This document shows, in pieces, positions 1,841 through 35,923 of a stretch of DNA of 64,000 nt. The DNA comes from a virus (lineage: Duplodnaviria > Heunggongvirae > Uroviricota > Caudoviricetes): IMG/VR virus record IMGVR_UViG_3300042564_004805, positions 1 through 64,000 of that record. One strand, 5' to 3'. Numbering within the stretch: position 1 is the first letter of the stretch; the number at the start of each line of letters is the position of its first letter. A program made the translations under genes and the position numbers. The notes under the pieces are model-generated. The model saw only the letters and a list, made by a program, of their open reading frames with translations, had not been told where the DNA came from and made no database searches.

Positions 1841-3058
1841 TCATTCGTCTCCCACACTTTGCTGGCTCCACCGCGGCGCACGGAACAGTGAGCGTGCCTC
1901 GTCCACCCGGGTCTGCGTGCCAGTGCATTTGCGGATCACATCGCACACCAGCTCACGCCAGTCCACGTGGCCCTCACGGGCCCAGACCTTGAACACAGCA
2001 CTACGCAGGTTGGGCTCAAGACCCGGTGCTGCCTCCAGTGCAAACCGCTTTCTATCGTCACCAAACTGCCGCCGGAGCTTGACATACTGGTCCTTCCATA
2101 TGTAGGCAGTTTGCCCCACACCCGTCCAGAAGGCGTTCTCGTAGGCGTCGATGCGAGCCAGGTCCTCCACAGGCAGAAAGCTCTTGACGTCGTCCAGCTT
2201 TTCCGCCAGCATGAGGTCGATGAGGTTCTTCTCCTGCGTGAGAGCATCCTTGGCACGGTGGATACGCACATACCAGGCCGATTTCAACTTGGCCATATGT
2301 CCATCATCCCACCGGATGATCCACCCCTCCTCGCCTTCCAGCTCATGCGTCTCCCGAACGAGCTGCTCCATGCTAGCCACAGTACCAGGATAGGCCTTGA
2401 CTAGATCCAGCTCATACTCGGCCGCCAGTTCCTGCATCTGAGAGTAGGTGAGATACTCACCCGAGTTGATGTGACGCACAGCAGTCAGCACCAGTCGATC
2501 AACTGGATAATCACACACAATCTTTTGTTGACGAGTACACCACTCGAAACAGGCAGTGTATCCCTGCTCCAGTGTGTCTCGGATAAATCGGTCATAGTTG
2601 TCTCGAGTTGCCACGAACGGCTCAACCTGTGCTGCTACAGCAGTGGGCCCCATCTTGGTTGCAAGACAGTAGCCCTTACCTAGAGGTAGAGCACGAATCA
2701 TACTTCCATCCAACTTCTCAAGGATGATGTGTGGCTGAGTGAGATCGATGTTTTCAATCAAAGTCTCGCGCCGTTCGCCCACGTTCCAAAACTTCTGAAA
2801 TGCGCGGCTCACCAACTTTCCATCAAGGCTGAACAGCAGCCCCCTACACTCCCGGCGGATAGCCTTGAGTCGAGTCTGCCGCTCGCGCATGCTGGCGCTG
2901 CCTCCAGCAGTATGGACCTCGGGGAACATGTCCGGGCCCATCTGAATGTAGTTGACCACAGTGCCCCAGGGCCGCTGGGCTACAATGAAGCCTTCCACAC
3001 CCTGGACAGCTTCCAGCACTTGATCCAGGTGCGTGATCTCGGGAAACGTGTAGTGCAT
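1841..3058 (-). CDS. rnlA: RNA ligase 1 (T4 RnlA / gene 63-like)
   Basis: ECRGLLFSLDGK, KFWNVGE and the lysine motif I IILEKLDGSM line up with T4 Rnl1 ECRGIMFEMDGE..KFFNLNE..ILTKEDGSL. Confidence 0.85.
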   Translation of the reverse strand: MHYTFPEITHLDQVLEAVQGVEGFIVAQRPWGTVVNYIQMGPDMFPEVHTAGGSASMRERQTRLKAIRRECRGLLFSLDGKLVSRAFQKFWNVGERRETLIENIDLTQPHIILEKLDGSMIRALPLGKGYCLATKMGPTAVAAQVEPFVATRDNYDRFIRDTLEQGYTACFEWCTRQQKIVCDYPVDRLVLTAVRHINSGEYLTYSQMQELAAEYELDLVKAYPGTVASMEQLVRETHELEGEEGWIIRWDDGHMAKLKSAWYVRIHRAKDALTQEKNLIDLMLAEKLDDVKSFLPVEDLARIDAYENAFWTGVGQTAYIWKDQYVKLRRQFGDDRKRFALEAAPGLEPNLRSAVFKVWAREGHVDWRELVCDVIRKCTGTQTRVDEARSLFRAPRWSQQSVGDE

Positions 3059-4430: not shown

Positions 4431-5213
4431 TTAAGCGGCTGCTTGCAGTGTGTCAACACTCTGCTTGTTACGCATACGCTCGTAGATGCGCCAGGGCCGA
4501 CTGTCCACTTCAAAAGGGTTGCTGACCTTTTGTGAGAGGGCTTGCAGTGCCAGTTGACGGTCAACTTCGCGACGCATCCTCTTGGCTCGTTGGAAACCAG
4601 CCAGCTGCAATCCTGGCAGCATGTCTGAGTATTGGGCTTCCAGTGACTTGCACTGTTCGCGTCGCGTTTGAGTAGCAGTGGCTTGCACCTCGTGGTTGCG
4701 CACCAAATGAGTCAACTGCTTGATGCGCTTGTTCTGCTCAGCAGCCTCTCGGCGCATCTTACGTTCAAAAGCCAGTGAGCGAAAGCTGCCAGTCTCAGGC
4801 GCGGGCCGACTCATTTCCATAGCCTGCAGGAAATCTTCCCAGGGCGTGTTGCCTCGACGGTTGTTGCATCGGCCACACGCCACAGCCAAGTTGGTGATGT
4901 GGTCAGTGCCACCACAACTGCGAGGAGTGATGTGCTCAATGGTGGCACTGTTCTTGAAGCCTTGTTCGCCACGCATCTCGCAGTGACACCAGCAGCAGCG
5001 CCAACGCTGCACCTCAGCTAGCCGTGTGCGATCATACGCCTTGCGAGCCAGTGCTCGAGCCCGGCGAGCTTGATCCTGATTGGGATATACCTCCAGCCAA
5101 TAGGGCAAGGTTCTCATCTGGGGATCATTTACGATGCTGGGCACATCAATTCGCATATCCGTCTCCTTTGCAACACCCACAACATACAGAGTCTGCACAT
5201 CCGTGTCAACCAC
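4431..5213 (-). CDS. HNH endonuclease
   Basis: CCWCHC...EHITPRSCGGTDHITNLAVACGRCNNRRGN is an HNH motif with Cys/His zinc ligands. Confidence 0.8.
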   Translation of the reverse strand: MVDTDVQTLYVVGVAKETDMRIDVPSIVNDPQMRTLPYWLEVYPNQDQARRARALARKAYDRTRLAEVQRWRCCWCHCEMRGEQGFKNSATIEHITPRSCGGTDHITNLAVACGRCNNRRGNTPWEDFLQAMEMSRPAPETGSFRSLAFERKMRREAAEQNKRIKQLTHLVRNHEVQATATQTRREQCKSLEAQYSDMLPGLQLAGFQRAKRMRREVDRQLALQALSQKVSNPFEVDSRPWRIYERMRNKQSVDTLQAAA

Positions 5214-7147: not shown

Positions 7148-7630
7148 TTAGGGATAGAGTTTGAGATGGCCTAGAATGTCTGAAACTTCGGGCTTGTTGC
7201 GATCCACAAGGCACCAAATGCAAGTGGTCTCTTGGCGAGTCATCAGCACACGCCCATCATCCATGGTTTTGATGACAGCTGCCTTGCCATTAGCTGCAAC
7301 AAGATCAGCTACCTCTTGATTTTCCACAAAAAATGGGTAGCTGGGGTCGACGACTGACCCCTTGACAGTGAGGTGGTATTCCCAACCATAAGTGCATCTC
7401 AGACCATGAAGCTGGTCCATTGTGGCACCCAGCACAATTGTGGTGTTGAAGTAGTAGGCACCTTGTGAGACACCGTCGGCAACATACTGTTGAACTAGTG
7501 GATGATCTGCAAATAGGCTCATCATCTGGGTTCCAGCATGATGTACTTGTGCAGCCAGCTTTCCTGGGTTCATACTGGGCAGATCAGTTCGGGCCAGCAC
7601 GTAGACAGCTAGATCAGGCGTGGCTTCCAT
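7148..7630 (-). CDS. peptidyl-tRNA hydrolase, PTH2 family
   Basis: DLPSMNPGKLAAQVHHAG and C-terminal GHLKLYP match the PTH2 signature (DLKMGKGKIAAQCSHA...GHLKLY); start trimmed to MEATPD, which has an AAGGAG site and a promoter upstream. Confidence 0.8.
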   Translation of the reverse strand: MEATPDLAVYVLARTDLPSMNPGKLAAQVHHAGTQMMSLFADHPLVQQYVADGVSQGAYYFNTTIVLGATMDQLHGLRCTYGWEYHLTVKGSVVDPSYPFFVENQEVADLVAANGKAAVIKTMDDGRVLMTRQETTCIWCLVDRNKPEVSDILGHLKLYP

Positions 7631-7654
7631 TTGTTGTTCTCCTTGTGTAGCTTC

Positions 7655-7682
7655 AATATACAGCACAGACAGACTGTGTCAA
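7655..7682 (-). promoter_or_regulatory. sigma70-like promoter (TTGACA-16-TATATT) for the PTH2 gene
   Basis: plus-strand tgtcaa at 7677-7682 and aatata at 7655-7660; AAGGAG Shine-Dalgarno before the ATG at 7630. Confidence 0.55.
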
Positions 7683-9783: not shown

Positions 9784-10995
9784 TCAGTTGAACTCCGTTG
9801 CCTCGCCGTTCTTCACTCGGCGGAGCAGATACGCCGGAGAGATGAATTTGCAGATTTTCCTACCGTGCAGGGGATGCTCGGTGGGAACCAGGCTGCGCAC
9901 CACCACACCTTCCCGCACATTGGTGCCACCCACCGTTGTGACACCGTCTCTCACAGCCTCAATGGCAGTTTGGTCAAAGGGGCCAGTGTAGAGGGTAGGT
10001 ACACAGGGCAGGTCCTTTGCCCAGTAGGCCACGGCATCGGGACTTAGCCACTCCCGCCCGATCCGCATGTCGAACACCCGGAACGTGGGCTTAGTGGTGC
10101 CGTAGTCGAGGTCCTGCACGCCCTTGCCGAAAACTTCTCCCAGGATAGCCACCGGATGAGCACCGCCGTCCACCTTGCTCATCCTGTGGAGGAGCCCGGC
10201 GAGGTCATGGTCGGCTAGCAGTGTGCCAAGTGCCCGCACATAGAGGTTGTTGGCGTTGGCTTCGTTGTTCTTGAACACCAAACCCTGACCGCCTAGTCCC
10301 TTGCTGCTGACAGTGATGCTGCGGTAGCCTGCATGGTCGGGGAACATCTCGGGATGGTCCATGCCTGGGAAGTACTGGATGATGGTACAAGATCCATGAA
10401 TTTTTTCTTGGGCCACCACCACCTCACCAGGTTCGAAGATGTCAGGCACGCTCTCCCAACGCTGAAAATCGTAGGTAAGAGCAGCCTCAGCAACACTGGC
10501 AACTTCACCAGACATCGCAGCGGGAATGGGCGGCTCCCACCTGGTGATGCCCAAGATTGCAGCAGCATCCTCGCCTAGCTTGACTGGATATTCAAGACTG
10601 TCTTTGCCTACTACATGTACATCCGTCGCCGACCCAAAATCAGCAGAAAGGCAATCGTCATCACCATATGCAATGAGCCCATACAGCACACCTTCGCTGA
10701 AAATACCACGCAGCTTGAGTGGCTTCACACGGTTGCCATCACTGCCTGCCAGCACACCCTTACCAGCGTCTTCGTTCCAAAATCCCATGTCCTTGAGCAG
10801 CCATTCAGGCAGCACCGAGGCTGAGGGAATGTATACGACCCAGTCACCGGGCTTGTAGCGCGGGCTACCATCCTCTAGTTTGTTTGCGATGCAGAGATAA
10901 CCGAGGCCTTCAAGGCGCACAAGAGAAAGGCGATCCGCATTCGGATGTTCTTCGACTGCGGCCACACGCACCACAGGGCAACTGAACTTGCTCAT
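9784..10995 (-). CDS. RNA ligase (Rnl2/Rnl5-like nucleotidyltransferase) with N-terminal OB-fold tRNA-binding (Myf/EMAP-like) domain
   Basis: N-terminus VVRVAAVEEHPNADRLSLVRLEGLG...KLRGIFSEG is tRNA_bind-like; motif I EKIHGSC; EGVVVRS; C-terminal RKICKF lysine motif V. Confidence 0.75.
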   Translation of the reverse strand: MSKFSCPVVRVAAVEEHPNADRLSLVRLEGLGYLCIANKLEDGSPRYKPGDWVVYIPSASVLPEWLLKDMGFWNEDAGKGVLAGSDGNRVKPLKLRGIFSEGVLYGLIAYGDDDCLSADFGSATDVHVVGKDSLEYPVKLGEDAAAILGITRWEPPIPAAMSGEVASVAEAALTYDFQRWESVPDIFEPGEVVVAQEKIHGSCTIIQYFPGMDHPEMFPDHAGYRSITVSSKGLGGQGLVFKNNEANANNLYVRALGTLLADHDLAGLLHRMSKVDGGAHPVAILGEVFGKGVQDLDYGTTKPTFRVFDMRIGREWLSPDAVAYWAKDLPCVPTLYTGPFDQTAIEAVRDGVTTVGGTNVREGVVVRSLVPTEHPLHGRKICKFISPAYLLRRVKNGEATEFN

Positions 10996-12009: not shown

Positions 12010-12381
12010 CTAAAAGGGCGTAATTGTGCTGGCAAAAGCCTCCACAACGTCCTTGGCCTCTTTCAGGCCCAGAGCCGTTTCAGTTCGCAGCTCTTTGATG
12101 GCATTGATCTTCATGCCAGCACGAACATAGTCTTCCACAGACTTGCTGATGGTGACCCCATACATGGTGGGACGTTCAGTATTTGTGAGGCGTCGCATAG
12201 CTTCCCGACTGGTTTCGTCCAGGATCAAGATGTCGCGTGCATCTCGTGACAGTGCGTAGATGTCGTGTGCCCGAGCTTGCCCTTCTCGAGCACCTTCGTG
12301 GCTTAGGTGGATGATCTCGTTCACCAGGTGCACTAGGCGCTTGAAGTCATTGTCAGAAAGGTTTCCGAGATCATCGGTCAT
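12010..12381 (-). CDS. protein with ribosomal L7/L12 C-terminal domain-like segment
   Basis: C-terminus [26 protein letters not shown] resembles the L7/L12 CTD ([24 protein letters not shown]). Confidence 0.6.
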   Translation of the reverse strand: [123 protein letters not shown]

Positions 12382-12392
12382 AACCGGTTTTC

Positions 12393-12629
12393 CTATTTCT
12401 CAAACACGTGAAGACGAGTGCTGCCAAACGAGGTCTTTACCTTGCGCACACGGTAGCCATGCCGCGCAAGGATCATGCTGGCCTCGCTGTAGAGGCGTTC
12501 ATCCCACCCCCATACCTTGATGCTGCGACCATTTTGAATGCGGTCGCTGAACAGGATTCGAGGTGTACCCAGCAGGGTGATGAGGCTGCGCACAAGACGG
12601 GCGGGAGTGGGTTTGGGTTTGTTGTTCAT
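12393..12629 (-). CDS. hypothetical small protein (start at MNNKPKP)
   Basis: a promoter sits immediately upstream of the internal ATG at 12627-12629. Confidence 0.4.
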   Translation of the reverse strand: MNNKPKPTPARLVRSLITLLGTPRILFSDRIQNGRSIKVWGWDERLYSEASMILARHGYRVRKVKTSFGSTRLHVFEK

Positions 12630-12635
12630 GTGCCT

Positions 12636-12664
12636 AAAGTAGCAGGGGGTTACGGGGTTGTCAA
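12636..12664 (-). promoter_or_regulatory. sigma70-like promoter (TTGACA-17-TACTTT)
   Basis: plus-strand tgtcaa at 12659-12664. Confidence 0.35.
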
Positions 12665-12672
12665 CAGTGGTT

Positions 12673-12978
12673 TTAGCGTTTCCAGCCCAGTTCTTCACCC
12701 TTGCGATATGCGCCCATGATCCAACCCAGTGCCTCAGGATATTCCTGCACATCGTCAAGGATAATGTCAGTAATGGCATCATCCAGTTCAGGATCCGGAT
12801 CCTGCTGGACCCCCATAAGTCGTTCAAGAGCCTCTTCGCGCTGAGCAGCAATGATGCTAGCCTCCAAGAGTGCTTGCATGATCCGAGCCATTTCTGGGTC
12901 ATCTTTCCATTCCGGTGGAAAATTCCCACCAATAATGGTCCACTTACCAAATGGGTTTGGTTGGTCTTTGGGTTCCAC
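12673..12978 (-). CDS. hypothetical acidic protein
   Basis: 101-aa ORF with protein-like composition. Confidence 0.45.
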   Translation of the reverse strand: MEPKDQPNPFGKWTIIGGNFPPEWKDDPEMARIMQALLEASIIAAQREEALERLMGVQQDPDPELDDAITDIILDDVQEYPEALGWIMGAYRKGEELGWKR

Positions 12979-16407: not shown

Positions 16408-16704
16408 TCAATTTGTGGAGCGTTCAGTATTTTTGATGAGTTGAGACATGTCTATTCCATTAACAGACAGCAGACTATCAAACCTCAGACTGCGCCAATT
16501 TCCCTTATCTAGATCCCAGAGGACCACTAGATTCAAGTTTTGCCCCTTTGACTTTCTATTGGTTGATACTTGCGTCGTGGATACTTGCGGCACAAGTTGT
16601 TCAGATAATGTGGCCTTCATTTTTCGGTGAGAGCCATCTCGTTTCTCAAACACTAGGTTGACTTCACCAGACAACAGTTTTTCAACAAATTGATCTCGTG
16701 TCAT
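16408..16704 (-). CDS. hypothetical protein
   Basis: ORF only. Confidence 0.4.
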   Translation of the reverse strand: MTRDQFVEKLLSGEVNLVFEKRDGSHRKMKATLSEQLVPQVSTTQVSTNRKSKGQNLNLVVLWDLDKGNWRSLRFDSLLSVNGIDMSQLIKNTERSTN

Positions 16705-17141
16705 TAAATTTCCTTCTCTACTTTTTTCAATACTTTTTGCATATCTGGATTGACTAAGTTTGCAGCTTCTTGCCAGGTGACTACTTTAAATTGATCCAAT
16801 TCTTTGACATCACGACCTTTGGAGTCTTTAAACGTGCTCTTGCAGACTAGGGAAGTGGGGTCTGGCATTTGTTCGACCTTCCAAAGATACAGCACTAGAT
16901 CCTTTTTTGGCTTATATAGGAACACGCCCAGAGGCGTAAGGGCTGAGGTGTCTTCCACTACCAAACCAGTTTCTTCATTTAGTTCCCTCAGTGCAGCTTC
17001 AAGAAAGCTTTCTCCAGGGTTCATGCCTCCTTTAGGTAGGTCCCACCATTTACCACGTGTTACATGCCCAACAACCAACTTGTTCCCGTCAGTTATCACC
17101 ACACCACAACTTGTTGATTTACCCATTGTAAGATTCTCCAT
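16704..17141 (-). CDS. Nudix hydrolase
   Basis: Nudix box GGMNPGESFLEAALRELNEETGL; start uncertain (listed ORF begins at TTG; tandem -35 elements at 17172-17207). Confidence 0.75.
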   Translation of the reverse strand: MENLTMGKSTSCGVVITDGNKLVVGHVTRGKWWDLPKGGMNPGESFLEAALRELNEETGLVVEDTSALTPLGVFLYKPKKDLVLYLWKVEQMPDPTSLVCKSTFKDSKGRDVKELDQFKVVTWQEAANLVNPDMQKVLKKVEKEI

Positions 17142-17219
17142 ATCCTTCCAGTGTAGGACAGACGACATCTTTGTCAACAAGTTATTTGTGATTTTCCACA
17201 ACGTCAACTACTATGGATT

Positions 17220-21198: not shown

Positions 21199-22086
21199 TT
21201 ATCGATATCTATCCAGCACAGTTTGCAGCTCATTTACCAGTTGATCAACACCAGTTTCTCGCTTGACACCGGTGGTGAGAGGGCCATAGTGCATTGACAA
21301 ACAGTCAAGAAGTAGATGTTTGATCCTCTTCTCATCTGGCTTATCTCGCAACGTGCTGTTGGCATGTAGTGTCTCTAGAGATTTTTCCTTGACATCAAAC
21401 CAACTGTCCAGCTGCTCTAGTGTCCACTCACCTCGCCGAATGCTCTTGAGCACCTCGCTGTTGCGCTCAATGTCAAGGTCATGCTCTACCAGGATCTGCT
21501 CGCATTGCAGCATGAGCCTCACTACATGCACTCCAAACTTCAGATCCCATCCGTGTTCAGCAATAGTGGCAGCTCTTTTGGGATTGCTGCTGTTGGTTTT
21601 GTTGCGAATTTTTGAAATTTGTGAAAATGCGTATCCCCGAAGTTTTCCCATAGCTCCTTTGTGGAGGAACTCTTTCCTATGCTCTCTCACATGCTCTGCG
21701 ATTTTGGTGCTGTGGAGAATGCAGCGGCGGGGAAGAAAGAGAACGTCCAAAACATTTGGATTATTTTCCATCGCCAGTTGCATAAAATCAACGATATTAT
21801 AAATAGAAAAGTCCAACTCTTTCCGTTGATCCGGCAGCTGAATGTGATGCTCGCTCCACACTCGAAACCGCTGTTCCTGTGTGCCAAAGCCATACACCCT
21901 GCCGCCGTCGGTGAAGGGGAACACAATCTCACGGGGCGGGATGCAGAAGCCAAAGCAGTCCATGTCACTCGTGTCGTTGCTGACACCATAGGCAGCACTA
22001 CCAGCATAGCCCAGAAATTGAGTGTTGTCGGGCAACCACTTGGGCGGGTGTATGAGTTTTCGGTCAACTAATGTGTGCAGCAGCAT
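21199..22086 (-). CDS. predicted nucleotidyltransferase (Pol-beta-like fold)
   Basis: GYAGSAAYGVSNDTSDMDCFGF matches the GS...D.D nucleotidyltransferase signature. Confidence 0.5.
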   Translation of the reverse strand: MLLHTLVDRKLIHPPKWLPDNTQFLGYAGSAAYGVSNDTSDMDCFGFCIPPREIVFPFTDGGRVYGFGTQEQRFRVWSEHHIQLPDQRKELDFSIYNIVDFMQLAMENNPNVLDVLFLPRRCILHSTKIAEHVREHRKEFLHKGAMGKLRGYAFSQISKIRNKTNSSNPKRAATIAEHGWDLKFGVHVVRLMLQCEQILVEHDLDIERNSEVLKSIRRGEWTLEQLDSWFDVKEKSLETLHANSTLRDKPDEKRIKHLLLDCLSMHYGPLTTGVKRETGVDQLVNELQTVLDRYR

Positions 22087-24834: not shown

Positions 24835-25096
24835 ACAGAGGTCTCACATTATAGACCAGCAACAAATCAAGGGTTTCAAAAGGTATCTTGTAGCCTATAT
24901 CCCACTCATAATGCGGCACATTCAACTCTAGCCAACACCAAAGTTCAGGAAAATAGTGTTGTAGCCACCCTTTGCGACCACCATACTGGTGGAAAATGTT
25001 CTCCAAATGATGGTTGAGGAAATTGTCGGCTAATGGGTAGCGCCAGTGCCCACCAGCATCAATGCACTGCCATCGGTCAAGCTTTCTCATCATCAC
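24794..25096 (-). CDS. small protein, family 2 (YFPELWCWLELN)
   Basis: tandem paralog. Confidence 0.45.
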   Translation of the reverse strand: MMMRKLDRWQCIDAGGHWRYPLADNFLNHHLENIFHQYGGRKGWLQHYFPELWCWLELNVPHYEWDIGYKIPFETLDLLLVYNVRPLFEAAWEDQILDTV

Positions 25097-25655
25097 TTCC
25101 CATCAAATCCTTCAGCATGAGTTTGAAGGTCTCAGCCTGCTCGAGCGAATCTGCAAGAGCGTTGTGAGTGTGCGGCAACTTGCTAAACCAATGTCGTGGC
25201 CAATTCCTTTTCACACTCTCACGGTAAGGCAGCCGCAGCATGCACATGGCCATGGTCTTCATGTCTAACACACTGAAACTGAACACACTTTTCCCTGTGA
25301 AACGCATGAGATAGTAATACACCCAAGTGAAGTCAAATCCACTGGGCATGCACACTGCCACTGGACTACCAGGAAAACTTGCCACCCACTGACTGAAATG
25401 GGGCATAGCCTCCTCTGGGCTTTGACACCACACTCGCGTCTCATCATAATATTTTTGATGTTGTGCCCAGAAATCCATTGTTTTGGGGTCTGGTTTGGCC
25501 TCAGGCAACAGATTCAAGTTCACATAGTAGGTGTCAAGATTGTTGCCCTGTTCATCAAAAGCCACACAACCCAAGCTCAACATACTATTGAGTCCTGGAC
25601 AGGGTCCATCGGTTTCGATGTCTATGGAAAAATAAGCTGTTGTTTTCTTGCTCAT
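25077..25655 (-). CDS. DEDDh 3'-5' exonuclease (DnaQ-like)
   Basis: Exo I FSIDIETDG, Exo III H..NALADS. Confidence 0.75.
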   Translation of the reverse strand: MSKKTTAYFSIDIETDGPCPGLNSMLSLGCVAFDEQGNNLDTYYVNLNLLPEAKPDPKTMDFWAQHQKYYDETRVWCQSPEEAMPHFSQWVASFPGSPVAVCMPSGFDFTWVYYYLMRFTGKSVFSFSVLDMKTMAMCMLRLPYRESVKRNWPRHWFSKLPHTHNALADSLEQAETFKLMLKDLMGSDDEKA

Positions 25656-26177: not shown

Positions 26178-26291
26178 AGCAGAGTTTGTACAATTATGTG
26201 TGTACGTGTCAAAATTGACACTAAATACAATTGCGGTCCGCGAGCCTCTAACCTCTCCGACCGCTCTAAACGCTATGAAGGAGCATTCAGC

Positions 26292-27227
26292 ATGAAATTA
26301 TTGCCTAGGGTATCTTTGCCTATCAACCATCCGTATTTAGACAACAAATACACTCAATGGTATTACAGTATAATTGAATCAGCAAGAATTCGTCAACTTG
26401 TTGGGTATACAGAACAACATCACATAGTCCCTGACTCTTTCTTTTTACATCGTAATCGGAAGGGTACAAGAGGATGGATTGAAGGAAATTCAAATGACCC
26501 TTCGAATTTAGTTCGCCTCACAGCAAGAGAACATTTGTTATGTCATCAACTATTGATTTATATAGTATCTACTGACTCAGCGAAAGCTAAAATGATTTAT
26601 GCACTGAATTATATGGTAGGTTATCGAACAAATTCACATTTTGTTACTGCATCTCTATATGAGAAGTGCAGAAAGATGGTATCACAAGTCAGGACAGGCA
26701 GAAAACATTCACCAGAAACCTGCAAGAAGATAGGAGAAAGTAGCAAAGGCAGAACTCCCTCAGAGGAGTCCAATAGAAAAAGATCAGAAGCTTTGAAAGG
26801 TAAAAAACAGCCACTAGAATTAGTGGCTAAACGCGCAGCTAAATTGAAGGGTCGTATTGTATCCGAGCAAACTAGAGCCTTATTATCCCAAATCAATATG
26901 GGCAAGGTCAGTAAACTCCGTGGCATTCCGCGCAGCGAAGAAGTAAAAGAAAAATCACGTCAAAAAAACAAGCAGAATTACACCAACGGAATGGTTAACC
27001 CGTTCAAAGGAAAGAAACACAGCGATTTGTCAAAACAGAAAATGAGCGAGATTAAAAAGGGTAAAACTCAATCTGAAGAAACAAAAAGGAAAATCAGCGA
27101 AAATAACAAAGGTCGCAAGCTTTCGGATGAGACAAAAAAGAAAATCAGTGAAAGCAGACAAGGTCTCAAACATTCTGACGAGTCAAAAAGAAAAATGTCT
27201 GCAAGTGCTAAAAATAGGCGGAAATAA
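26292..27227 (+). CDS. HNH homing endonuclease with NUMOD3 repeats
   Basis: HHIVPDS...N..NLVRLTAREH HNH motif followed by about eight SEETKKKIS-type NUMOD3 repeats; start set at MKLLPR after the AAGGAG site. Confidence 0.8.
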   Translation: MKLLPRVSLPINHPYLDNKYTQWYYSIIESARIRQLVGYTEQHHIVPDSFFLHRNRKGTRGWIEGNSNDPSNLVRLTAREHLLCHQLLIYIVSTDSAKAKMIYALNYMVGYRTNSHFVTASLYEKCRKMVSQVRTGRKHSPETCKKIGESSKGRTPSEESNRKRSEALKGKKQPLELVAKRAAKLKGRIVSEQTRALLSQINMGKVSKLRGIPRSEEVKEKSRQKNKQNYTNGMVNPFKGKKHSDLSKQKMSEIKKGKTQSEETKRKISENNKGRKLSDETKKKISESRQGLKHSDESKRKMSASAKNRRK

Positions 27228-27250: not shown

Positions 27251-28513
27251 CTAGCCTGCATCTCCTGTTTCAGCCACCCCTTCTTCTTTTGTGAACCGCA
27301 CCCAGGTACCAAACGGCGGAACGATATTCTTGTTCCAAGGATTGTTGACAAGCCAAACAACGGGACAGAAATTGGGCTCGCCAAACTCACTTGATTCAAG
27401 ATCTGTGAAGATGATCAATACCTTGGGCTCAACATTCATTTCCTTGAGTGATCTAATAACCACAGAAATGTCGGTTCCGCCGCCACCCATGGGCTCATAC
27501 TCCAGCAGCTCTTCAATGTTTTCTGGAGTAAACTCCTGGCGATTATAGAGCCGGGTATCAAAGGTGCTGACTGCAAGCCGGAAATTATCATATTGTGAAG
27601 TTATCCCCAAAACTTCACTTAGAAAGTCGCGTGCCATGTCAGCAGAGATGCTGCCGCTTTGGTCAATGCTGACCTCCACATCCACAGTTTCCTCACGCTC
27701 CAGGCTGGCAAACACCACATCACCACCATGATGGCGACGATTGGGGCGCCGGTAGGTGTAGTCGCTTGTGAGTTGGCTTTGAATAGTCTCGCGAATGAAG
27801 TCACGCCAGTTGATCTTGGGCTCCACAAGATGGTCCACAAGACGTGCAATGCTGGCTGGAAGATTTCCAGCAGAGGCATTGGCAGCTTGCAGAACCTTGT
27901 CTTTGAGCTCAGCTCGAAGCTGTTTGAGGCTTTCCTCATCAATCTCAACAGGAATGCCTTGGTTGCTTTTTTGCCCATCTGAGTTTTGGGCATCTTTGCC
28001 CATCTCAATGTGCACGTCGAGAGTAAGCTGTTTCTTCACCTTGCGCTTTACAAGGTCGTCATAGACTTTTTCTGACGTCCAGCCCAGATACTTGCTGTCG
28101 TAGAGGCCAACACGCTGGGTGGATTTGCCATCAGCGTCTTTAACTTCTACCTTTTTTTCTGGCATTTTGCCAATCTTGTCTTGCACAAGTAGGCCGTTTA
28201 TAACGTAATCATTGGCCATGTTAAACCACTGCGGATCACGATGGCTGCGTCGACCAAAGTGATCAAAGATACAATGGTAGCACTCGTGCGCAAAAACAAA
28301 CAGCACTTCATCAACTGATAGGTCGTTGATGAAATTTCGGTTGTAGTAGATATATCGACCATCAACCGCAGCAGTCGGGCACCATCCAGCATCAGTTGCG
28401 TCCTTAACCGGAAGGTTCATGACCAATGTTCCGAAAAAAGGATGGGTGAACATCAACTTCAATCGAGCCTTGCGGATCTTGGTCATAGCTGAATCGTCAT
28501 TGGCGATAGACAT
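27251..28513 (-). CDS. VWA-domain protein with N-terminal HExxH putative metallopeptidase domain (DUF2201-like, MoxR partner type)
   Basis: HECYHCIFDH HExxH motif and a C-terminal VWA-like region; AAGGAGG Shine-Dalgarno site. Confidence 0.65.
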   Translation of the reverse strand: MSIANDDSAMTKIRKARLKLMFTHPFFGTLVMNLPVKDATDAGWCPTAAVDGRYIYYNRNFINDLSVDEVLFVFAHECYHCIFDHFGRRSHRDPQWFNMANDYVINGLLVQDKIGKMPEKKVEVKDADGKSTQRVGLYDSKYLGWTSEKVYDDLVKRKVKKQLTLDVHIEMGKDAQNSDGQKSNQGIPVEIDEESLKQLRAELKDKVLQAANASAGNLPASIARLVDHLVEPKINWRDFIRETIQSQLTSDYTYRRPNRRHHGGDVVFASLEREETVDVEVSIDQSGSISADMARDFLSEVLGITSQYDNFRLAVSTFDTRLYNRQEFTPENIEELLEYEPMGGGGTDISVVIRSLKEMNVEPKVLIIFTDLESSEFGEPNFCPVVWLVNNPWNKNIVPPFGTWVRFTKEEGVAETGDAG

Positions 28514-28786: not shown

Positions 28787-31700
28787 ATGGCGATAAAAAT
28801 TTGTGGGAATATAGTGATTCCCAATAGTACAGGATGCAATACGACTGCACTTAACACAGCCGTGGGTATCAATGCACTTTGTAATCTCAACACAGGTGTT
28901 AGCAATACAGCTTTTGGTGGTGGGGCTCTTCTGGCTGTCTCAACCGGCTCTCTGAACATGGGTCTAGGTGTCTATGCTGGTGGTAGCATCACAACAGGCT
29001 GTGCCAACACAGTGATTGGGCAGTTGGCTGGTACCCCAGGCCTCGTTGACACTGTGCTGATTGGTGCTGGCACAACTGAGAGATTGCGTGTTGACGCCAA
29101 TTGTCTAGTTGTCAACAATGGCACTGGTGATGTGTGTGCCCGCTGCTTCTTTGGTTGTGGTGCTGGTTTAACTGGCATTTCTGGCGGGGCAGTTTCAGCA
29201 GCAACTCCAATTCAATTGGGAACTGTGTATGGCCTCACAAGCAACAACTCCAACACTGCAATAGGATACTGTGCAGGCAGCACAACCAGCACAGGCACAG
29301 AAAATATTGCTATTGGTTGTTTGGCGCTCAGCAATAACACAACTGGCGTTCAAAACACTGCCGTGGGGGTAGACGCGCTCAAATCCAATACGATTGGGCA
29401 AGAAAATACTGCCCTTGGCAGCGACGCGTTGTTCTCAAACACAACTGGCAATTGGAACGTGGCTGTAGGGCGGTGTGCACTATATGCCAACACTGTGGGC
29501 CAAATGAATGTGGCTGTTGGGCGGAACAGTCTGTGCACTAATACCACTGGCAGCTTCAATGCCGCATTTGGTGAAGCCACCCTGTTGTGCAACACAACAG
29601 GCAGCTACAATACTGCACTGGGCACAAGCGCCTTGCGTTGCAATACCCAAGGCAACTTGAACATTGCTGTTGGCAACAACAGTTTGTTTAACAACACCAG
29701 TGGCAGTCGGAACATTGCTGTTGGTGACTGTGCCCTGTTCAATAGTGTGAGTGGATCAGACAACGTAGCTGTTGGCAGCAGTGCCCTGGGAGGACTCACT
29801 AACGGCTTATGGAACATCGCTGTGGGCTCAAATGCTTTGCGCTGCAACACCACAGGCTGCAACAATATTGCTTTGGGATTCTCCAGCATGTGCAGCAGCT
29901 CAGTTGGTTCAGACAATGCTGCATTTGGATCGTTTGCCCTCTCTGCCAACACAACAGGAACCTTGAATACAGCTATCGGCCACTACGCATCATGTGCCAA
30001 CACCATTGGAGCATGCAATATTGCTCTTGGCGCATGCTCACTAGCTGCAAACACATCGGGTGGTAGCAACGTTGCTGTTGGGCCATTTGCTTTGGCCAGC
30101 AATACAGTAGGAGTTCGTAACATTGCAATGGGCAGATGTGCTTTGGCCGCTAATACTGGCAACTGCAACATTGGCATTGGTGTTCTTTCGCTACTCAACA
30201 CAACTACTGGTGCATGTAATATAGCAATTGGCAACAGCAGTGGGGGTAATATCACAACCGGAACCAGCAATACTATTATAGGTAATTTATCAGGTTGTGC
30301 TGGCCTCACCGCCACTGTATTGATTGGCGCAGGGGCTACTGAACGTATCCGTGTTGACGCCAATTGTCTAGTTGTAAACAATGGCACTGGTGATGTGTGT
30401 GCTCGCTGCTTCTTTGGCTGTGGTGCTGGTTTAACTGGCATTAGCGGCGGAAGTGTGTCTGCTGCTACTCCCACAAGTTTGGGGACAGTTTATGCCAACA
30501 CTCCTGTTGGGTCGAATGTGCAGTTGGGATATAATGCTGGCAATACTACTGCTACTGGAGCAGATAACATTGCAGTTGGTTGTCTAGCTTTGGTCAACAA
30601 CGGTTTTGGATGTCAAAACTTGGCATTTGGCAGCAGCAGCATGTGTGCAAGCACAACTGGGCGCAGTAATATCGCAATAGGCATTGACACCATGATGTTA
30701 GGAGGCGGGCCGTGTGGTAACATTGGTGTTGGTAACGGGGCTCTTTGTTGCGTAAGTGGCACACAGGGAACAGCCAATGTGGCTCTGGGACATTTTGCCT
30801 TGAGAAGGACTACAACTGGTGGCTACAACACTGCGGTTGGTGAGCAAGTACTTCAAAACAATACAATAGGATGCCAAAACATAGGTTTTGGTGCCTTTGC
30901 ATTGGGGGCTAATACCTCAGGCTTTAACAACATTGGAATTGGGGCTTATGCTGTAGACGCCAATACCACAGGAGTGGAAAATGTTGGTATAGGCACTTGC
31001 AGCCTTACAGCTAACACAATAGGTTTGTGCAATACTGCGGTTGGCGGGAATAGTCTTAAGTCAAATACTATAGGCTGTTTCAATACAGCACTTGGATTCA
31101 TGGCCCTGAACTGCAACACAACTGGTAACAGCAACATTGGTATAGGCGTTTGTGCAGGTTTTTCAATAACAACTGGGTGCAGTAATACAGTAATTGGTAA
31201 CTTGGCTGGCACAGCTGATTGTGTGAACACAGTGTTGATAGGCGCTGGAACAAACGAAAGACTAAGAGTTGACGCAAACTGTTTGGTTGTCAACAACGGC
31301 ACAGGGGACGTGTGTGCAAGATGTTATTTTGGTTGCGGCGCTGCTTTAACAGGTGTTGCGGCTACTACTGCCAATTTGGACATCTATGCCAGCTATAAGG
31401 TTGGTAACGGCCTTACAGTCAGTACAGGAACAAACAACTTTGCTTTTGGCCAAGGTGCGCTTTGTTGTAACCGAAATGGTTGTAGCAATACAGCTATCGG
31501 TGCGAGTGCTCTACGATGCAATACAACTGGTAGCAATAACATTGCAGTTGGTTGTTTGGCACTCCAATTTAATACAAGTGGTAACAATAACATAGGCATG
31601 GGCTTTGATGCCCTTGGCACTAATTTTAATGGCAGTGACAACATTGCATTGGGGGCATGTGCTCTAAGGAACAATATTACCAATTCAAACATAGCAATTG

Positions 31701-34700
31701 GCGGCGCTGCCCTACAGCAGAATACCAGTGGCACATTTAACATAGCACTGGGTATTGGTGCGCTGACTGCAAACACCGCTGGAATATGTAACATAGCAAT
31801 TGGCCAACTCGCTGGAAGTCTGATCACAACTGGGTTCAACAACACAATAATTGGCAATTTGTCACCAGCAGCCGGCAGTGTATGTTGTGTGCTGATTGCT
31901 GCTGGCAGTTGTCAGCGACTGGCTATAGATGTGAATGGATTTGCTATAAACGGCAGCGGTGTGGGCTGTTGCGGATATGCGTGTTTGGACTGCACTAGCA
32001 GTTATAAAATAGGCACATTCAATACCAGCAGCACTGGGACATTTAACATGGCATTTGGCCAAGGTGCGCTTTGTTGTAACCGAAATGGTTGTAGCAATAC
32101 AGCTATCGGTGCGTCTGCTCTACGATGCAATACTAGCGGGTGTCACAATATTGCAGTTGGTTGTTTAGCACTCCAACTTAACCTAACTGGTAACAATAAC
32201 ATAGGCATGGGCTTTGATGCCCTTGGCACCCTTGGCACTACCTCTGGTGGCAGTGACAACATTGCATTGGGGGCATGTGCTCTAAGGAACAATCAGACCA
32301 ATTCAAACATAGCAATTGGCGGCGCTGCCCTACAGCAGAATTGCAGTGGCACATTTAACATAGCACTGGGTATTGGTGCGCTAGGTGCAAACACCGTTGG
32401 AACATGTAACATAGCAATTGGCCAACTCGCTGGAAGTCTGATCACAACTGGGTGCAACAACACAATAATTGGCAATTTGTCTGGCACTACGGGTTTGAAT
32501 AACACTGTATTGATTGGTGCTGGCAGTTGTGAACGACTGAAAGTAGACTCAAGTGGGCTTTATGTTAATGGGGCATCTATTGGTAGCTGTGGATATGCGT
32601 GTTTGGACGTCTATAGCAGTTATAAAATAGGCACATTTATGTCCAGCAGCACTGGGTTATATAACATGGCATTTGGCCTAGCTGCGCTTTGTCTTAATCT
32701 AAATGGTAGTAATAATACAGCTATCGGTGCGTCTGCTCTACGATGCAATACAACTGGTAGCAATAACATTGCAGTTGGTTGTCTGGCACTCCAATTTAAT
32801 ACAAGTGGTAACAATAACATAGGCATGGGCTTTGATGCCCTTGGCACCCTTGGCACTACCTCTGGTGGCAGTGACAACATTGCATTGGGGGCATGTGCTC
32901 TAAGGAACAATCAGACCAATTCAAACATAGCAATTGGCGGCGCTGCCCTACAGCAGAATTGCAGTGGCACATTTAACATAGCACTGGGTATTGGTGCGCT
33001 AGGTGCAAACACCGTTGGAACATGTAACATAGCAATTGGCCAACTCGCTGGAAGTCTGATCACAACTGGGTGCAACAACACAATAATTGGCAATTTGTCT
33101 GGCACTACGGGTTTGAATAACACTGTATTGATTGGTGCTGGCAGTTGTGAACGACTGAAAGTAGACTCAAGTGGGCTTTATGTTAATGGGGCATCTATTG
33201 GTAGCTGTGGATATGCGTCTTTGGACTGCACTAGCAGTTATAAAATAGGCACATTTATGTCCAGCAGCACTGGGTTATATAACATGGCATTTGGCCTAGG
33301 TGCGCTTTGTTGCAACCGTAATGGTAGTAGCAATACAGCTATCGGTGCGTCTGCTCTACGATGCAATACTGCTGGTAGCAATAACATTGCAGTTGGTTGT
33401 TTGGCACTCCAATTAAACCTAACTGGTAACAATAACATAGGCATGGGCTTTGATGCCCTTGGCATTAACCCTGGTGGCTGTGACAACATTGCATTGGGGG
33501 CATGTGCTCTAAGGAACAATCTTACCAATTCAAACATAGCAATTGGCGGCGCTGCCCTACAGCAGAATACCAATGGCACATTTAACATAGCACTGGGTAT
33601 TGGTGCGCTGACTGCCAACACCACTGGAACATGTAACATAGCAATTGGCCAAAACGCTGGCTCCCTAATAACCACTGGGTTCAACAACACGGTAATTGGC
33701 AATTTGTCTGGCACCGGGGGTTTGGTTTGCACTGTATTGATTGGTGCTGGCGCATGTGAACGACTGCGAGTAGACGGAACTGGGCTTTATGTTAATGGAG
33801 CATCTATTGGTAGCTGTGGATATGCATGTTTGGACTGCACTTCCAGTTATAAAATAGGCACATTTATGTCCAGCAGTGCTGGGACATTTAACATGGCATT
33901 TGGCCAAGGGGCGCTTTGTTGTAATTTAACTGGTTGTAGCAATACAGCTATCGGTGCGTCTGCTCTACGATGCAACCAGAACGGGTCTCATAATATTGCA
34001 ATTGGTTGTTTGGCACTTCAATTCAACACACTAGGTTGCAATAACATAGGCATGGGAGTTAATGCCCTAGGCACTAACTTGAATGGAAGTGACAACATAG
34101 CATTGGGGGCATTGGCCCTTTGCTCAAACACCACCGGTTGCAACATAGCAATTGGTTACTTTGCCCTATCGCAGAATACTACTGGGACTGGTAACATAGC
34201 ACTGGGTATTGGTGCGCTGACTGCCAACACCACTGGAACATGTAACATAGCAATTGGCCAAAACGCTGGAAGTCTGATCACAACTGGGTTCAACAACACG
34301 GTAATTGGCAATGTAACACCAGCAGCAGGCAGTGTATCTTGTGTGCTGATTGCTGCTGGCAGTTGTCTGCGACTGGCTATAGATGGGAATGGATTTGCTA
34401 TAAACGGCAACCCTGTGGGCTGTTGTGGATATGCGTGTTTGGACTGCACTAGCAGTTATAAAATAGGCACATCCAATACCAGCAGCACTGGGCTATTTAA
34501 CATGGCATTTGGCCTAGCTGCGCTTTGTTGCAACCGTAATGGTTGTAGCAATACAGCTATCGGTGCGTCTGCTCTACGATGCAATACTAGCGGGTGTCAC
34601 AACATTGCAGTTGGTTGTTTAGCACTCCAATTTAATACAAGTGGTAACAATAACATAGGCATGGGCTTTGATGCCCTTGGAATTAACCCTGGTGGCTGTG

Positions 34701-35923
34701 ACAACATTGCATTGGGGGCATGTGCTCTAAGGAACAATACCACCAATTCAAACATAGCAATTGGCGGCGCTGCCCTACAGCAGAATACTACTGGGACTGG
34801 TAACATAGCACTGGGTATTGGTGCGCTGACTGCCAACACCACTGGAACATGTAACATAGCAATTGGCCAAAACGCTGGAAGTCTGATCACAACTGGGTTC
34901 AACAACACGGTAATTGGCAATGTAACACCAGCAGCAGGCAGTGTATCTTGTGTGCTGATTGCTGCTGGCAGTTGTCTGCGACTGGCTATAGATGGGAATG
35001 GATTTGCTATAAACGGCAACCCTGTGGGCTGTTGTGGATATGCGTGTTTGGACTGCACTAGCAGTTATAAAATAGGCACATCCAATACCAGCAGCACTGG
35101 GCTATTTAACATGGCATTTGGCCTAGCTGCGCTTTGTTGCAACCAAAATGGTAGTAATAATACAGCTATCGGTGCTTGTGCTCTACGATGCAATACAACT
35201 GGTAGCAATAACATTGCAGTTGGTTGTTGGGCACTCCAATTTAATACAAGTGGTATCAATAATATAGGCCTGGGCTTTGATGCCCTTGGCACTAACTTTT
35301 GTGGCAGTGACAACATTGCATTGGGGGCATGTGCTCTAAGGAACAATACCACCAATTCAAACATAGCAATTGGCGGCGCTGCCCTACAGCAGAATACCAA
35401 TGGCACAAACAACACTGCAATAGGACGATCAGCAGGTACGAGCAACACAAATGGCAGTAACAACGTGTTTTTGGGATGCGGTGCAAGTGGAGCAACAGCA
35501 ACCAGCAACAACACAATAACTTTTGGTGATTCCAGCATTACTACACTGCGAGCTCAGGTAACTACTATTACTGCTTTGTCTGATGCTAGAGACAAAACTG
35601 ACATCGAAGATATTCCTTTGGGATTGCAGCTGATACGTGATCTACGTCCAGTAAAATTCACATGGAATACTAGAGATGGCAGCCGAGTAGGGGTCAAGAG
35701 CGCTGGATTTATTGCTCAAGAAGTACTGGAAGTCAGCAATCGATATAATCTACAAGACTGGCTGCATTTGGTGCTTGAGGACAACCCAGAGAAGCTTGAA
35801 GCCACAGTAGCTAACGTGTTCCCTGTGTTGATTCGAGCTGTGCAAGAGTTGGCTGAAAGCAACGATCAGCTCAATCAGCGTGTGACAGCTCTTGAACTTG
35901 CACTCACTGCCAAAGGTGTGTAG
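28787..35923 (+). CDS. giant tail fibre/adhesin (2378 aa): Hep_Hag-like N/G-rich beta-roll repeats plus C-terminal peptidase S74 intramolecular chaperone domain
   Basis: pervasive NTAIG..AL..NTTG..N.A.G repeats; C-terminus SDARDKTDIEDIPLGLQLIRDLRPVKFTWN...GFIAQEV matches the S74 Ser-Lys dyad autoproteolytic chaperone. Confidence 0.9.
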   Translation: MAIKICGNIVIPNSTGCNTTALNTAVGINALCNLNTGVSNTAFGGGALLAVSTGSLNMGLGVYAGGSITTGCANTVIGQLAGTPGLVDTVLIGAGTTERLRVDANCLVVNNGTGDVCARCFFGCGAGLTGISGGAVSAATPIQLGTVYGLTSNNSNTAIGYCAGSTTSTGTENIAIGCLALSNNTTGVQNTAVGVDALKSNTIGQENTALGSDALFSNTTGNWNVAVGRCALYANTVGQMNVAVGRNSLCTNTTGSFNAAFGEATLLCNTTGSYNTALGTSALRCNTQGNLNIAVGNNSLFNNTSGSRNIAVGDCALFNSVSGSDNVAVGSSALGGLTNGLWNIAVGSNALRCNTTGCNNIALGFSSMCSSSVGSDNAAFGSFALSANTTGTLNTAIGHYASCANTIGACNIALGACSLAANTSGGSNVAVGPFALASNTVGVRNIAMGRCALAANTGNCNIGIGVLSLLNTTTGACNIAIGNSSGGNITTGTSNTIIGNLSGCAGLTATVLIGAGATERIRVDANCLVVNNGTGDVCARCFFGCGAGLTGISGGSVSAATPTSLGTVYANTPVGSNVQLGYNAGNTTATGADNIAVGCLALVNNGFGCQNLAFGSSSMCASTTGRSNIAIGIDTMMLGGGPCGNIGVGNGALCCVSGTQGTANVALGHFALRRTTTGGYNTAVGEQVLQNNTIGCQNIGFGAFALGANTSGFNNIGIGAYAVDANTTGVENVGIGTCSLTANTIGLCNTAVGGNSLKSNTIGCFNTALGFMALNCNTTGNSNIGIGVCAGFSITTGCSNTVIGNLAGTADCVNTVLIGAGTNERLRVDANCLVVNNGTGDVCARCYFGCGAALTGVAATTANLDIYASYKVGNGLTVSTGTNNFAFGQGALCCNRNGCSNTAIGASALRCNTTGSNNIAVGCLALQFNTSGNNNIGMGFDALGTNFNGSDNIALGACALRNNITNSNIAIGGAALQQNTSGTFNIALGIGALTANTAGICNIAIGQLAGSLITTGFNNTIIGNLSPAAGSVCCVLIAAGSCQRLAIDVNGFAINGSGVGCCGYACLDCTSSYKIGTFNTSSTGTFNMAFGQGALCCNRNGCSNTAIGASALRCNTSGCHNIAVGCLALQLNLTGNNNIGMGFDALGTLGTTSGGSDNIALGACALRNNQTNSNIAIGGAALQQNCSGTFNIALGIGALGANTVGTCNIAIGQLAGSLITTGCNNTIIGNLSGTTGLNNTVLIGAGSCERLKVDSSGLYVNGASIGSCGYACLDVYSSYKIGTFMSSSTGLYNMAFGLAALCLNLNGSNNTAIGASALRCNTTGSNNIAVGCLALQFNTSGNNNIGMGFDALGTLGTTSGGSDNIALGACALRNNQTNSNIAIGGAALQQNCSGTFNIALGIGALGANTVGTCNIAIGQLAGSLITTGCNNTIIGNLSGTTGLNNTVLIGAGSCERLKVDSSGLYVNGASIGSCGYASLDCTSSYKIGTFMSSSTGLYNMAFGLGALCCNRNGSSNTAIGASALRCNTAGSNNIAVGCLALQLNLTGNNNIGMGFDALGINPGGCDNIALGACALRNNLTNSNIAIGGAALQQNTNGTFNIALGIGALTANTTGTCNIAIGQNAGSLITTGFNNTVIGNLSGTGGLVCTVLIGAGACERLRVDGTGLYVNGASIGSCGYACLDCTSSYKIGTFMSSSAGTFNMAFGQGALCCNLTGCSNTAIGASALRCNQNGSHNIAIGCLALQFNTLGCNNIGMGVNALGTNLNGSDNIALGALALCSNTTGCNIAIGYFALSQNTTGTGNIALGIGALTANTTGTCNIAIGQNAGSLITTGFNNTVIGNVTPAAGSVSCVLIAAGSCLRLAIDGNGFAINGNPVGCCGYACLDCTSSYKIGTSNTSSTGLFNMAFGLAALCCNRNGCSNTAIGASALRCNTSGCHNIAVGCLALQFNTSGNNNIGMGFDALGINPGGCDNIALGACALRNNTTNSNIAIGGAALQQNTTGTGNIALGIGALTANTTGTCNIAIGQNAGSLITTGFNNTVIGNVTPAAGSVSCVLIAAGSCLRLAIDGNGFAINGNPVGCCGYACLDCTSSYKIGTSNTSSTGLFNMAFGLAALCCNQNGSNNTAIGACALRCNTTGSNNIAVGCWALQFNTSGINNIGLGFDALGTNFCGSDNIALGACALRNNTTNSNIAIGGAALQQNTNGTNNTAIGRSAGTSNTNGSNNVFLGCGASGATATSNNTITFGDSSITTLRAQVTTITALSDARDKTDIEDIPLGLQLIRDLRPVKFTWNTRDGSRVGVKSAGFIAQEVLEVSNRYNLQDWLHLVLEDNPEKLEATVANVFPVLIRAVQELAESNDQLNQRVTALELALTAKGV
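31385..35530 (+). repeat. about seven in-frame tandem ~604-618-bp (~206-aa) near-identical modules inside the fibre gene
   Basis: module landmark ...CGYACLDCTSSYKIGT recurs at ~31992, 32610, 33228, 33846, 34450 and 35058; identical 70-aa antisense ORFs at 32293 and 32911 confirm the 618-bp period. Confidence 0.85.

Follow-up and report, generated by a model that had tools for sequence, protein, structure and literature searches.

Background

Proteins of tailed phages with short stretches resembling the ribosomal stalk protein bL12 (L7/L12) are on record. Mizuno et al. 2019 (Nat Commun 10:752, PMC6375957) reported phage bL12 domains that are short and variably placed in otherwise unrelated proteins, in which the residues contacting EF-G and EF-Tu are conserved and which are under purifying selection, and proposed that they serve as interfaces for translation factors. 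In that work the domains were found only in cultured phages of < 80 kb; one peptide of a phage bL12-domain protein was recovered in 70S preparations, and a tagged phage protein could not be affinity-purified with ribosomes. Al-Shayeb et al. 2020 (PMC7162821) additionally listed rpL7/L12 among the genes of huge phages.

The complete C-terminal domain (CTD) of bL12 comprises the elements β1-α4-α5-β2-α6-β3 in about 67 residues. Helices 4/5 of L7/12 are in contact with EF-Tu at its helix D (Kothe 2004 and Wieden 2001, both cited in PMC12179292), and works cited in PMC12179292 and PMC3505967, Helgstrand 2007 among them, assign the binding of IF2, EF-Tu, EF-G and RF3 to the conserved region of the CTD. 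Further residues of this domain, K95 and L106, are needed for docking to uL11 (PMC3505967). L7/12 has an α-hairpin in common with the N-terminal, EF-Tu-binding part of EF-Ts (Wieden 2001, cited in PMC12179292); Alva 2015 (PMC4739770) treats this 'EF-Tu-binding α-hairpin' as a fragment that recurs in different folds.

The gene described here encodes a known kind of protein, given the phage bL12-domain proteins of Mizuno et al. 2019 and Al-Shayeb et al. 2020, though it belongs to a distinct family. A preliminary description of the same DNA had overestimated its novelty, since short and variably placed bL12 matches in phages were already described in 2019. Like the bL12-domain proteins of that study, the protein is phage-encoded, displays a short match to PF00542 within an otherwise unrelated sequence, retains the contact residues and is under purifying selection. 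Unlike them, it has a fixed N-terminal domain of its own and its family is found on contigs of 110-408 kb, as against phages of < 80 kb.

Results and discussion

A conserved gene of large, uncultured tailed phages

The window, i.e. the whole stretch of 64,000 nt that was analysed, has a GC content of 46%, and the gene of interest sits in a long run of densely packed minus-strand genes. The open reading frame initially reported is indeed present; it lies on the minus strand, which the preliminary description had not stated, and encodes 123 aa:

12010..12381, minus strand: complete gene for the bL12-hairpin protein, 123 codons plus the stop codon at 12010-12012 (ORF list and sequence)
12389..12394, minus strand: Shine-Dalgarno-like AGGAAA, 7 nt 5' of the start codon at 12381 (read from the sequence)

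The start codon is ATG, and the AGGAAA site overlaps the stop codon of a 78-aa ORF upstream. This latter ORF (12393-12629, minus strand) stops 12 nt short of the ATG and is among the called genes of the related contigs L003 and L006; the 185-aa ORF of the mechanical list (12393-12950) is, as a whole, probably not real. Upstream, a 101-aa gene is called in another frame (12673-12978, minus strand), and neither it nor the 78-aa ORF has a family match. The 64-nt gap separating the stop codon of the 123-aa gene from the next gene (start at 11945) holds a σ70-like promoter match (11997-11970, minus strand) with TTGACA, a 16-nt spacer and TATGTT, matching at 10/12 positions with an extended-10 TG. 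A promoter and terminator scan of the region yielded nothing above the shuffled expectation, σ70-like sites included.

Identical copies of the 123-aa protein are encoded on 28 metagenomic contigs, the longest being 326-328 kb, such as ERZ27272062 k141_697863. Purifying selection acts on the gene: in one pairwise comparison, with a homologue that is 76% identical, dN/dS is 0.25 overall and 0.15 for the hairpin part alone.

The window is clearly of phage origin and the gene is a phage gene, in agreement with what had been claimed for it; the window codes for a phage DNA polymerase, a virion protein, a T4-type RNA ligase and homing endonucleases, and the identical gene recurs on the 326-328-kb contigs, which are themselves phage-like. 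We found no tRNA genes in the 64,000 nt. The following features define its surroundings:

1841-3058, 7148-7666, 9784-10995, 16704-17207, 21199-22086 and 25077-25655, all minus strand: RNA-repair/translation-maintenance cluster
28787-35923, plus strand: giant repeat-rich structural protein of 2378 aa, matching virion-structural and tail-spike PHROGs via 11-23 repeated stretches
4431-5213 (minus strand), 26196-27227 (plus strand) and 27251-28513 (minus strand): three homing-endonuclease-type genes, two HNH and one NUMOD3

The first of these clusters codes for a T4 Rnl1-like RNA ligase, a PTH2-like peptidyl-tRNA hydrolase, a second RNA ligase with a PHA02142 OB domain, a NUDIX hydrolase, an RlaP RNA-repair nucleotidyltransferase and an Rv2179c-like 3'-5' exoribonuclease. 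This assemblage around the 123-aa gene suggests a counter-defence toolkit directed against host systems that cleave tRNA or RNA; models of defence and anti-defence systems (PADLOC) matched neither the 123-aa protein nor its neighbours. The presence of three homing-endonuclease-type genes within 25 kb indicates a region of the phage genome rich in mobile elements. A megablast search with 6 kb of the DNA recovered no close relatives among cultured phages.

The contigs of 110-408 kb that carry other family members also encode T4-type rIIB, Pol III α and other large-phage genes in the vicinity. Gene order is kept only among close relatives, such as contig L006, where the 195-aa downstream gene and an RNA ligase are syntenic, and no conserved neighbourhood or operonic partner was found among the distant members of the family.

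A genuine but partial match to bL12

The preliminary description had pointed to a similarity, close to the C-terminus, with the core of the L7/L12 CTD, and this similarity is real. Pfam PF00542 (Ribosomal_L12) matches the protein with 31.6 bits, above its gathering score of 25.9 (E 2e-7; 25% of the protein covered) and also recovers each of the 17/17 family members. Residues 90-115, the peptide quoted in that description, are identical to N64-S89 of E. coli bL12 at 15/26 positions and to D. radiodurans bL12 at 17/26. A single-sequence search of the PDB with the 123-aa protein returned bL12 chains only, and one with the family profile retrieved 15 different bL12 sequences, with no other protein among the matches down to E 1.2e-6. 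A control profile for the full bL12 CTD, built exclusively from cellular sequences, gave the ORF 38.9 bits, with 37.7 bits over positions 12-42 of 68. Among 736 six-frame segments of the window the runner-up reached 4.5 bits, and no shuffled version of the protein (2000 in all) exceeded 6.9 bits. These segment and shuffle controls dispose of the low-complexity coincidence against which the claim had been hedged, and the resemblance to bL12 is neither chance nor low complexity.

In every alignment this match is confined to positions 11-41/42 of the 67/68 in the CTD profile, which correspond to α4, the turn and α5. Since the protein ends three residues past the match, it lacks β2-α6-β3 and, as a consequence, cannot form the α/β sandwich. 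The residues equivalent to K95 and L106, which dock on uL11, are likewise absent, the alignment stopping at about A92 and the sequence itself at the equivalent of about residue 95.

Genes of this kind are usually annotated as ribosomal, which would imply that the phage supplies a bL12 replacing that of the host in the ribosomal stalk. Some sources do name them 'ribosomal protein L7/L12', a peptide of a phage bL12-domain protein did surface in 70S preparations (Mizuno et al. 2019), and the succession of helical hairpin, hinge and C-terminal module is loosely reminiscent of the bL12 layout. What such a replacement would require on the uL10-binding side is missing: none of the family members (0/17) matches the bL12 N-terminal domain (NTD; PF16320) at E <= 10, and the family profile, aligned to this domain in PDB chains, gives 0.0 and -0.8 bits, in keeping with the earlier statement that the N-terminal part is unrelated to the bL12 NTD. 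We also considered the N-terminal domain as a diverged version of the bL12 NTD and rejected this, as the HMMER alignment is collinear with a score of 0 bits and PF16320 does not match. The NCBIfam equivalog for bL12, TIGR00855, gives 24.3 bits and fails to reach its cut-off of 84.4. Add to this the missing β2-α6-β3, which would contain the uL11-docking residues K95 and L106 (PMC3505967), and the tagged protein of Mizuno et al. that could not be affinity-purified with ribosomes. Without an NTD match, below the equivalog cut-off and short of half the CTD, the 123-aa protein is not a ribosomal bL12; with neither the uL10-binding domain nor as much as half of the CTD, it cannot be a stalk protein. 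Judging from these sequence comparisons, an identity as stalk bL12 is already largely refuted, and we regard it as highly improbable.

Two modules joined by a flexible linker

Structure prediction with AlphaFold2, conservation within the family and the profile matches divide the protein as follows:

12184..12381, minus strand: N-terminal family-specific domain, aa 1-66 (AlphaFold2 pLDDT 83-89; conservation over 54 sequences)
12148..12183, minus strand: linker, aa 67-78 (variable columns; low model confidence)
12121..12144, minus strand: 'helix 0', aa 80-87, the first helix of the 39-aa three-helix module, predicted in both models
12022..12114, minus strand: α-hairpin, aa 90-120, corresponding to bL12 α4-α5 (E. 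coli N64 to ~A92; PF00542 positions 11-41 of 67)
12013..12021, minus strand: last three residues, aa 121-123, where the protein ends (pLDDT 53 for the last block)

The whole model, computed with the family alignment, has a mean pLDDT of 79 and a pTM of 0.42. Residues 1-66 are predicted to form an antiparallel helical hairpin (helices 10-32 and 37-66), which bears a near-invariant motif across 54 sequences (H39, I41, Y42, R46, D47, R49, D50, D55, S58, R59 and L65) and has no match in Pfam, PHROGs, the PDB or the bL12 NTD. Confidence drops to a pLDDT of ~50 at aa 61-70, and below 50 at 65-68; the linker is predicted to hold a tiny β-hairpin around the conserved G75. The C-terminal helices of the whole model span 80-87, 91-102 and 106-119, and modelling aa 70-123 alone recovers the same three-helix bundle (pLDDT 84, pTM 0.65). 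Hence, the architecture predicted by these models is that of a module 1 (aa 1-66) followed by a flexible linker and a module 2 (aa ~79-119) that contains the bL12-like hairpin, and, by sequence comparison, the last two helices of module 2 are recognizable as a copy of the α4-α5 hairpin of bL12. The product is thus a two-module protein, conserved in large and uncultured tailed phages.

The term 'L7/L12 CTD look-alike', which had been applied to the protein, does not extend to its fold: both AlphaFold2 models and both fold searches point to a three-helix mini-domain rather than an α/β structure, so that of the two refuting outcomes named in the preliminary description the one on the fold applies. 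Searched against the PDB with Foldseek, neither the whole model nor the module model gave anything below E = 1, and no bL12 appears among the best 50 of 99 matches for the former or the best 50 of 58 for the latter; the matches for both are non-significant and represent generic small helical bundles. In relation to the CTD of bL12 (PF00542, PDB 1CTF), the module retains α4-turn-α5 with all conserved hairpin positions; unlike bL12, it has a helix in place of strand β1 and lacks the NTD, β2-α6-β3 and the residues docking on uL11.

A search with the N-terminal domain alone recovered ~60 clusters, nearly all of 119-135 aa and also possessing the hairpin, along with a few shorter entries of 66-104 aa that are probably truncated. 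As the N-terminal domain and the hairpin occur together in nearly all of these clusters, the architecture is fixed. Within the sensitivity of this search, the N-terminal domain was found in no other architecture.

Conservation of the factor-binding positions

Across the family (n=54), the helix equivalent to α4 conserves I92 (=V66; 98%), I95 (=I69; 98%), K96 (=K70; 89%) and R99 (=R73; 100%), with the E. coli bL12 numbering given after the equals sign. The turn and second helix conserve L106 (=L80; 98%), K107 (=K81; 81%), E108 (=E82; 87%), A109 (=A83; 94%), K110 (=K84; 94%) and D111 (=D85; 87%). The same ten positions are conserved in 390 short modules from cellular proteins. We take these positions to be the factor-contact residues of bL12, as reportedly listed in Kothe 2004, Diaconu 2005 and Helgstrand 2007. 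So many conserved charged residues in a domain of 39 aa are poorly explained by folding alone. Of the earlier interpretation, the similarity to the factor-binding α4-α5 region and the retention of its conserved residues stand; the CTD look-alike does not, less than half of the CTD being present. Given the conserved factor-binding positions, the best reading of the family is that of a putative factor-binding adaptor, not of a ribosomal protein and probably not of a bulk decoy.

A further point of comparison is the N-terminal, UBA-like domain of EF-Ts, which likewise displays a helix-turn-helix of similar sequence type (VKELRERTGAGMMDCKKAL) within a three-helix mini-domain. That mini-domain binds EF-Tu (Wieden et al. 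2001; fragment 24 of Alva et al. 2015). The additional helix follows the hairpin in EF-Ts and precedes it in the phage protein. The family profile does not match residues 1-60 of E. coli EF-Ts at E <= 1e-3 and there is no match to the Pfam EF-Ts model; weak tsf matches come only from some of the cellular short-module proteins.

The 39-aa module in cells and in other phages

A profile search of 1.84 billion representative proteins at E <= 1e-3 returned 10,181 matches to the family profile, true bL12 proteins presumably among them. We classified the best 150 of these 10,181 matches together with the relatives found earlier, 173 sequences in all. Proteins of <=140 aa with at most one hairpin account for 54/173; the short proteins among the best 150 are members of the family, as they are matched over their full length in a single stretch. 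A further 111/173 have 2-6 copies of only the C-terminal ~40 aa. In these multi-copy proteins the matched stretches start at about profile position 78, and successive hairpins are mostly spaced by 50-66 residues, which is too short for full CTDs. Among the few exceptions are P0033 and P0045, with tandem complete CTDs at a spacing of ~80 residues; in P0033, six complete bL12 CTDs are followed by LRV/HEAT repeats.

For 390 short-module domains, the alignment to the family profile begins at node 79 (median); for 12 full CTDs, E. coli bL12 included, it begins only at nodes 86-90. The start at node 79 implies that the short modules include helix 0 ahead of the hairpin. The unit hence spans about nodes 79-117, with the pattern φxxφφxxGxKIxAIKxxRxxTGxGLKEAKDxVE. 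Curated libraries contain it only at the C-termini of Pfam DUF6793 and NCBIfam NF005269 (PRK06771), neither of which has an assigned function. The 123-aa protein is not reported by DUF6793 at E <= 10, the model matching 7/17 relatives weakly (best E 0.0014), and it scores 16.5 bits with NF005269, whose cut-off is 90.

Proteins with tandem modules are chromosomally encoded in Planctomycetota, Myxococcota, Chloroflexota, Acidobacteriota, Actinomycetota, Verrucomicrobiota, Cyanobacteria, Proteobacteria and other phyla (loci L011-L090). In these proteins (P0027-P0173) the modules are separated by Pro/Ala-rich linkers and are often accompanied by an N-terminal Cys4 zinc ribbon or a transmembrane segment. 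The phage protein has the same module boundaries and conserved pattern as these proteins and the C-termini of DUF6793 and NF005269; it differs from the tandem-module proteins, with their 2-6 copies, in having one copy next to a unique N-terminal domain. Our literature search found no functional study of tandem-module proteins, DUF6793, PRK06771 or phage bL12-like proteins.

In tblastn searches, weak matches restricted to the module were seen in 57 records of cultured phages, with the rest of the protein different in every case. The phages concerned include Streptomyces phages of Samistivirus (gp3), N4-like roseophages, rhizobiophages such as the 469-kb Phosso, and Pseudomonas phage Pyxpy02. 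Only the module is shared between the 123-aa family and EGole gp3, Sulfitobacter vB_SupP_AX, Sinorhizobium Phosso 509 or Pyxpy02 gp135. The last of these (PP179311.1, L009:2165-2653) is a 162-aa protein in which an RF-1-type domain is followed by the hairpin at aa 112-138. Its RF-1-type peptidyl-tRNA-hydrolase domain has GGM in place of GGQ, and it is annotated as 'peptide chain release factor 1'. We found no paper on this fusion of RF-1 and hairpin, and it appears to be undescribed. Streptomyces phage EGole gp3 (L005:2953-3393) has homologues in ~44 Streptomyces phage records. Its gene is located in the long terminal repeats of these ~130-kb phages, two copies per genome and among the first genes, which suggests early expression. 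Such EGole-type phages offer a tractable cultured system for the module.

This distribution bears on an alternative in which the hairpin is an ancient general-purpose building block with a role apart from translational GTPases, and the N-terminal motif is the active part of the phage protein. As such, the hairpin might contribute to solubility, to oligomerisation or to some other protein binding. The very wide occurrence of the module off ribosomes, in tandem arrays and often beside zinc ribbons or transmembrane segments, is in line with this, as is its presence in Pfam and NCBIfam only within the families DUF6793 and NF005269 of unassigned function. So are the generic small helical bundles that are all the fold searches return, the N-terminal motif being conserved as strongly as the hairpin, and the reuse of the hairpin across folds described by Alva 2015 (PMC4739770). 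Set against these are the one-to-one coincidence of the conserved positions, charged residues included, with the factor-binding helices of bL12, the restriction of PDB matches to bL12, and the fusion of the module to an RF-1 domain in one phage, Pyxpy02. On balance, we consider a general-purpose building block somewhat unlikely, though it is the strongest of the competing explanations.

A proposed function as a translation-factor adaptor

We propose, with a probability of roughly 0.4 and from the sequence evidence assembled above, that the protein acts as a tether or adaptor through transient binding of a GTPase by module 2, with module 1 either dimerising or engaging a second partner. The hairpin appears to keep all the residues at the positions of bL12 helices 4/5 that dock EF-Tu (via its helix D), EF-G, IF2 and RF3, and module 2 would accordingly be capable of binding a host translational GTPase transiently. 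Module 1 might mediate self-association, resulting in a bivalent display similar to that of the bL12 dimer, or attachment to a second partner. The role of the whole protein during infection would then be that of a tether or adaptor for a translation factor, and neither that of a ribosomal subunit nor that of a stoichiometric sink.

Several observations count in favour of the adaptor proposal: the specific hairpin match, the conservation of its residues, the purifying selection, the hairpin-hinge-module layout, and the combination of the hairpin with a ribosome-directed RF-1-type domain in Pyxpy02. The RNA-repair and translation-maintenance genes in the vicinity add a weak contextual argument to the same effect. 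Other observations count against it. With half of the CTD absent, the three-helix bundle may present the hairpin surface in a geometry other than that of bL12; and as the module is present in thousands of non-ribosomal cellular proteins, its conservation could reflect some other common partner or the stability of the mini-domain. That some of those cellular proteins are membrane-anchored or have a zinc ribbon, that the neighbourhood is unconserved in distant members of the family and that the family profile fails to match the EF-Ts N-terminus also speak against a tether.

The same hairpin evidence is compatible with a decoy, the stronger version of the idea in the preliminary description, that would sequester EF-Tu, EF-G or IF2 from host ribosomes and thereby shut down or reprogramme host translation, and the placement of the gene among small, early-type genes of a large phage would suit such a role. 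Factor binding by the isolated CTD of bL12 is weak and transient, and few proteins of the cell are as abundant as EF-Tu. With contacts so weak and EF-Tu so abundant, a 1:1 sink for factors would need enormous expression; moreover, the phage depends on EF-Tu, EF-G and IF2 for its own translation. Many proteins encoded by cells carry the module in up to six copies, which suggests that it is not inherently toxic. Bulk sequestration is thus unlikely and we give the decoy little credence, tethering by an adaptor being the more defensible version.

A more speculative extension of the adaptor proposal, which we hold to be rather doubtful, is that the 39-aa unit of helix 0 and α4-α5 is a portable GTPase-docking module that the databases lump into Ribosomal_L12. 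Thousands of cellular proteins and several unrelated phage families would rely on it to keep EF-Tu, EF-G or IF2 tethered at sites other than the stalk, and the giant-phage family would be a dedicated adaptor that couples a host factor, via the N-terminal motif, to a phage partner or process. By way of example, EF-Tu might be protected or redirected during infection, alongside the phage tRNA/RNA-repair genes.

Conclusions

The label 'ribosomal protein L7/L12' is wrong for this family, as is counting its members as virus-encoded ribosomal proteins. What our analysis adds to the earlier papers on phage bL12-like genes is modest: the conserved unit is a 39-aa three-helix module instead of a CTD, it defines a very large uncharacterised class of cellular proteins, and the prevailing annotation is in error. 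If the hairpin does bind translational GTPases, phages would have gained with it a minimal handle on EF-Tu, EF-G or IF2, and, were this true, the tandem-module proteins of cells would be candidates for the tethering of translation factors off the ribosome.
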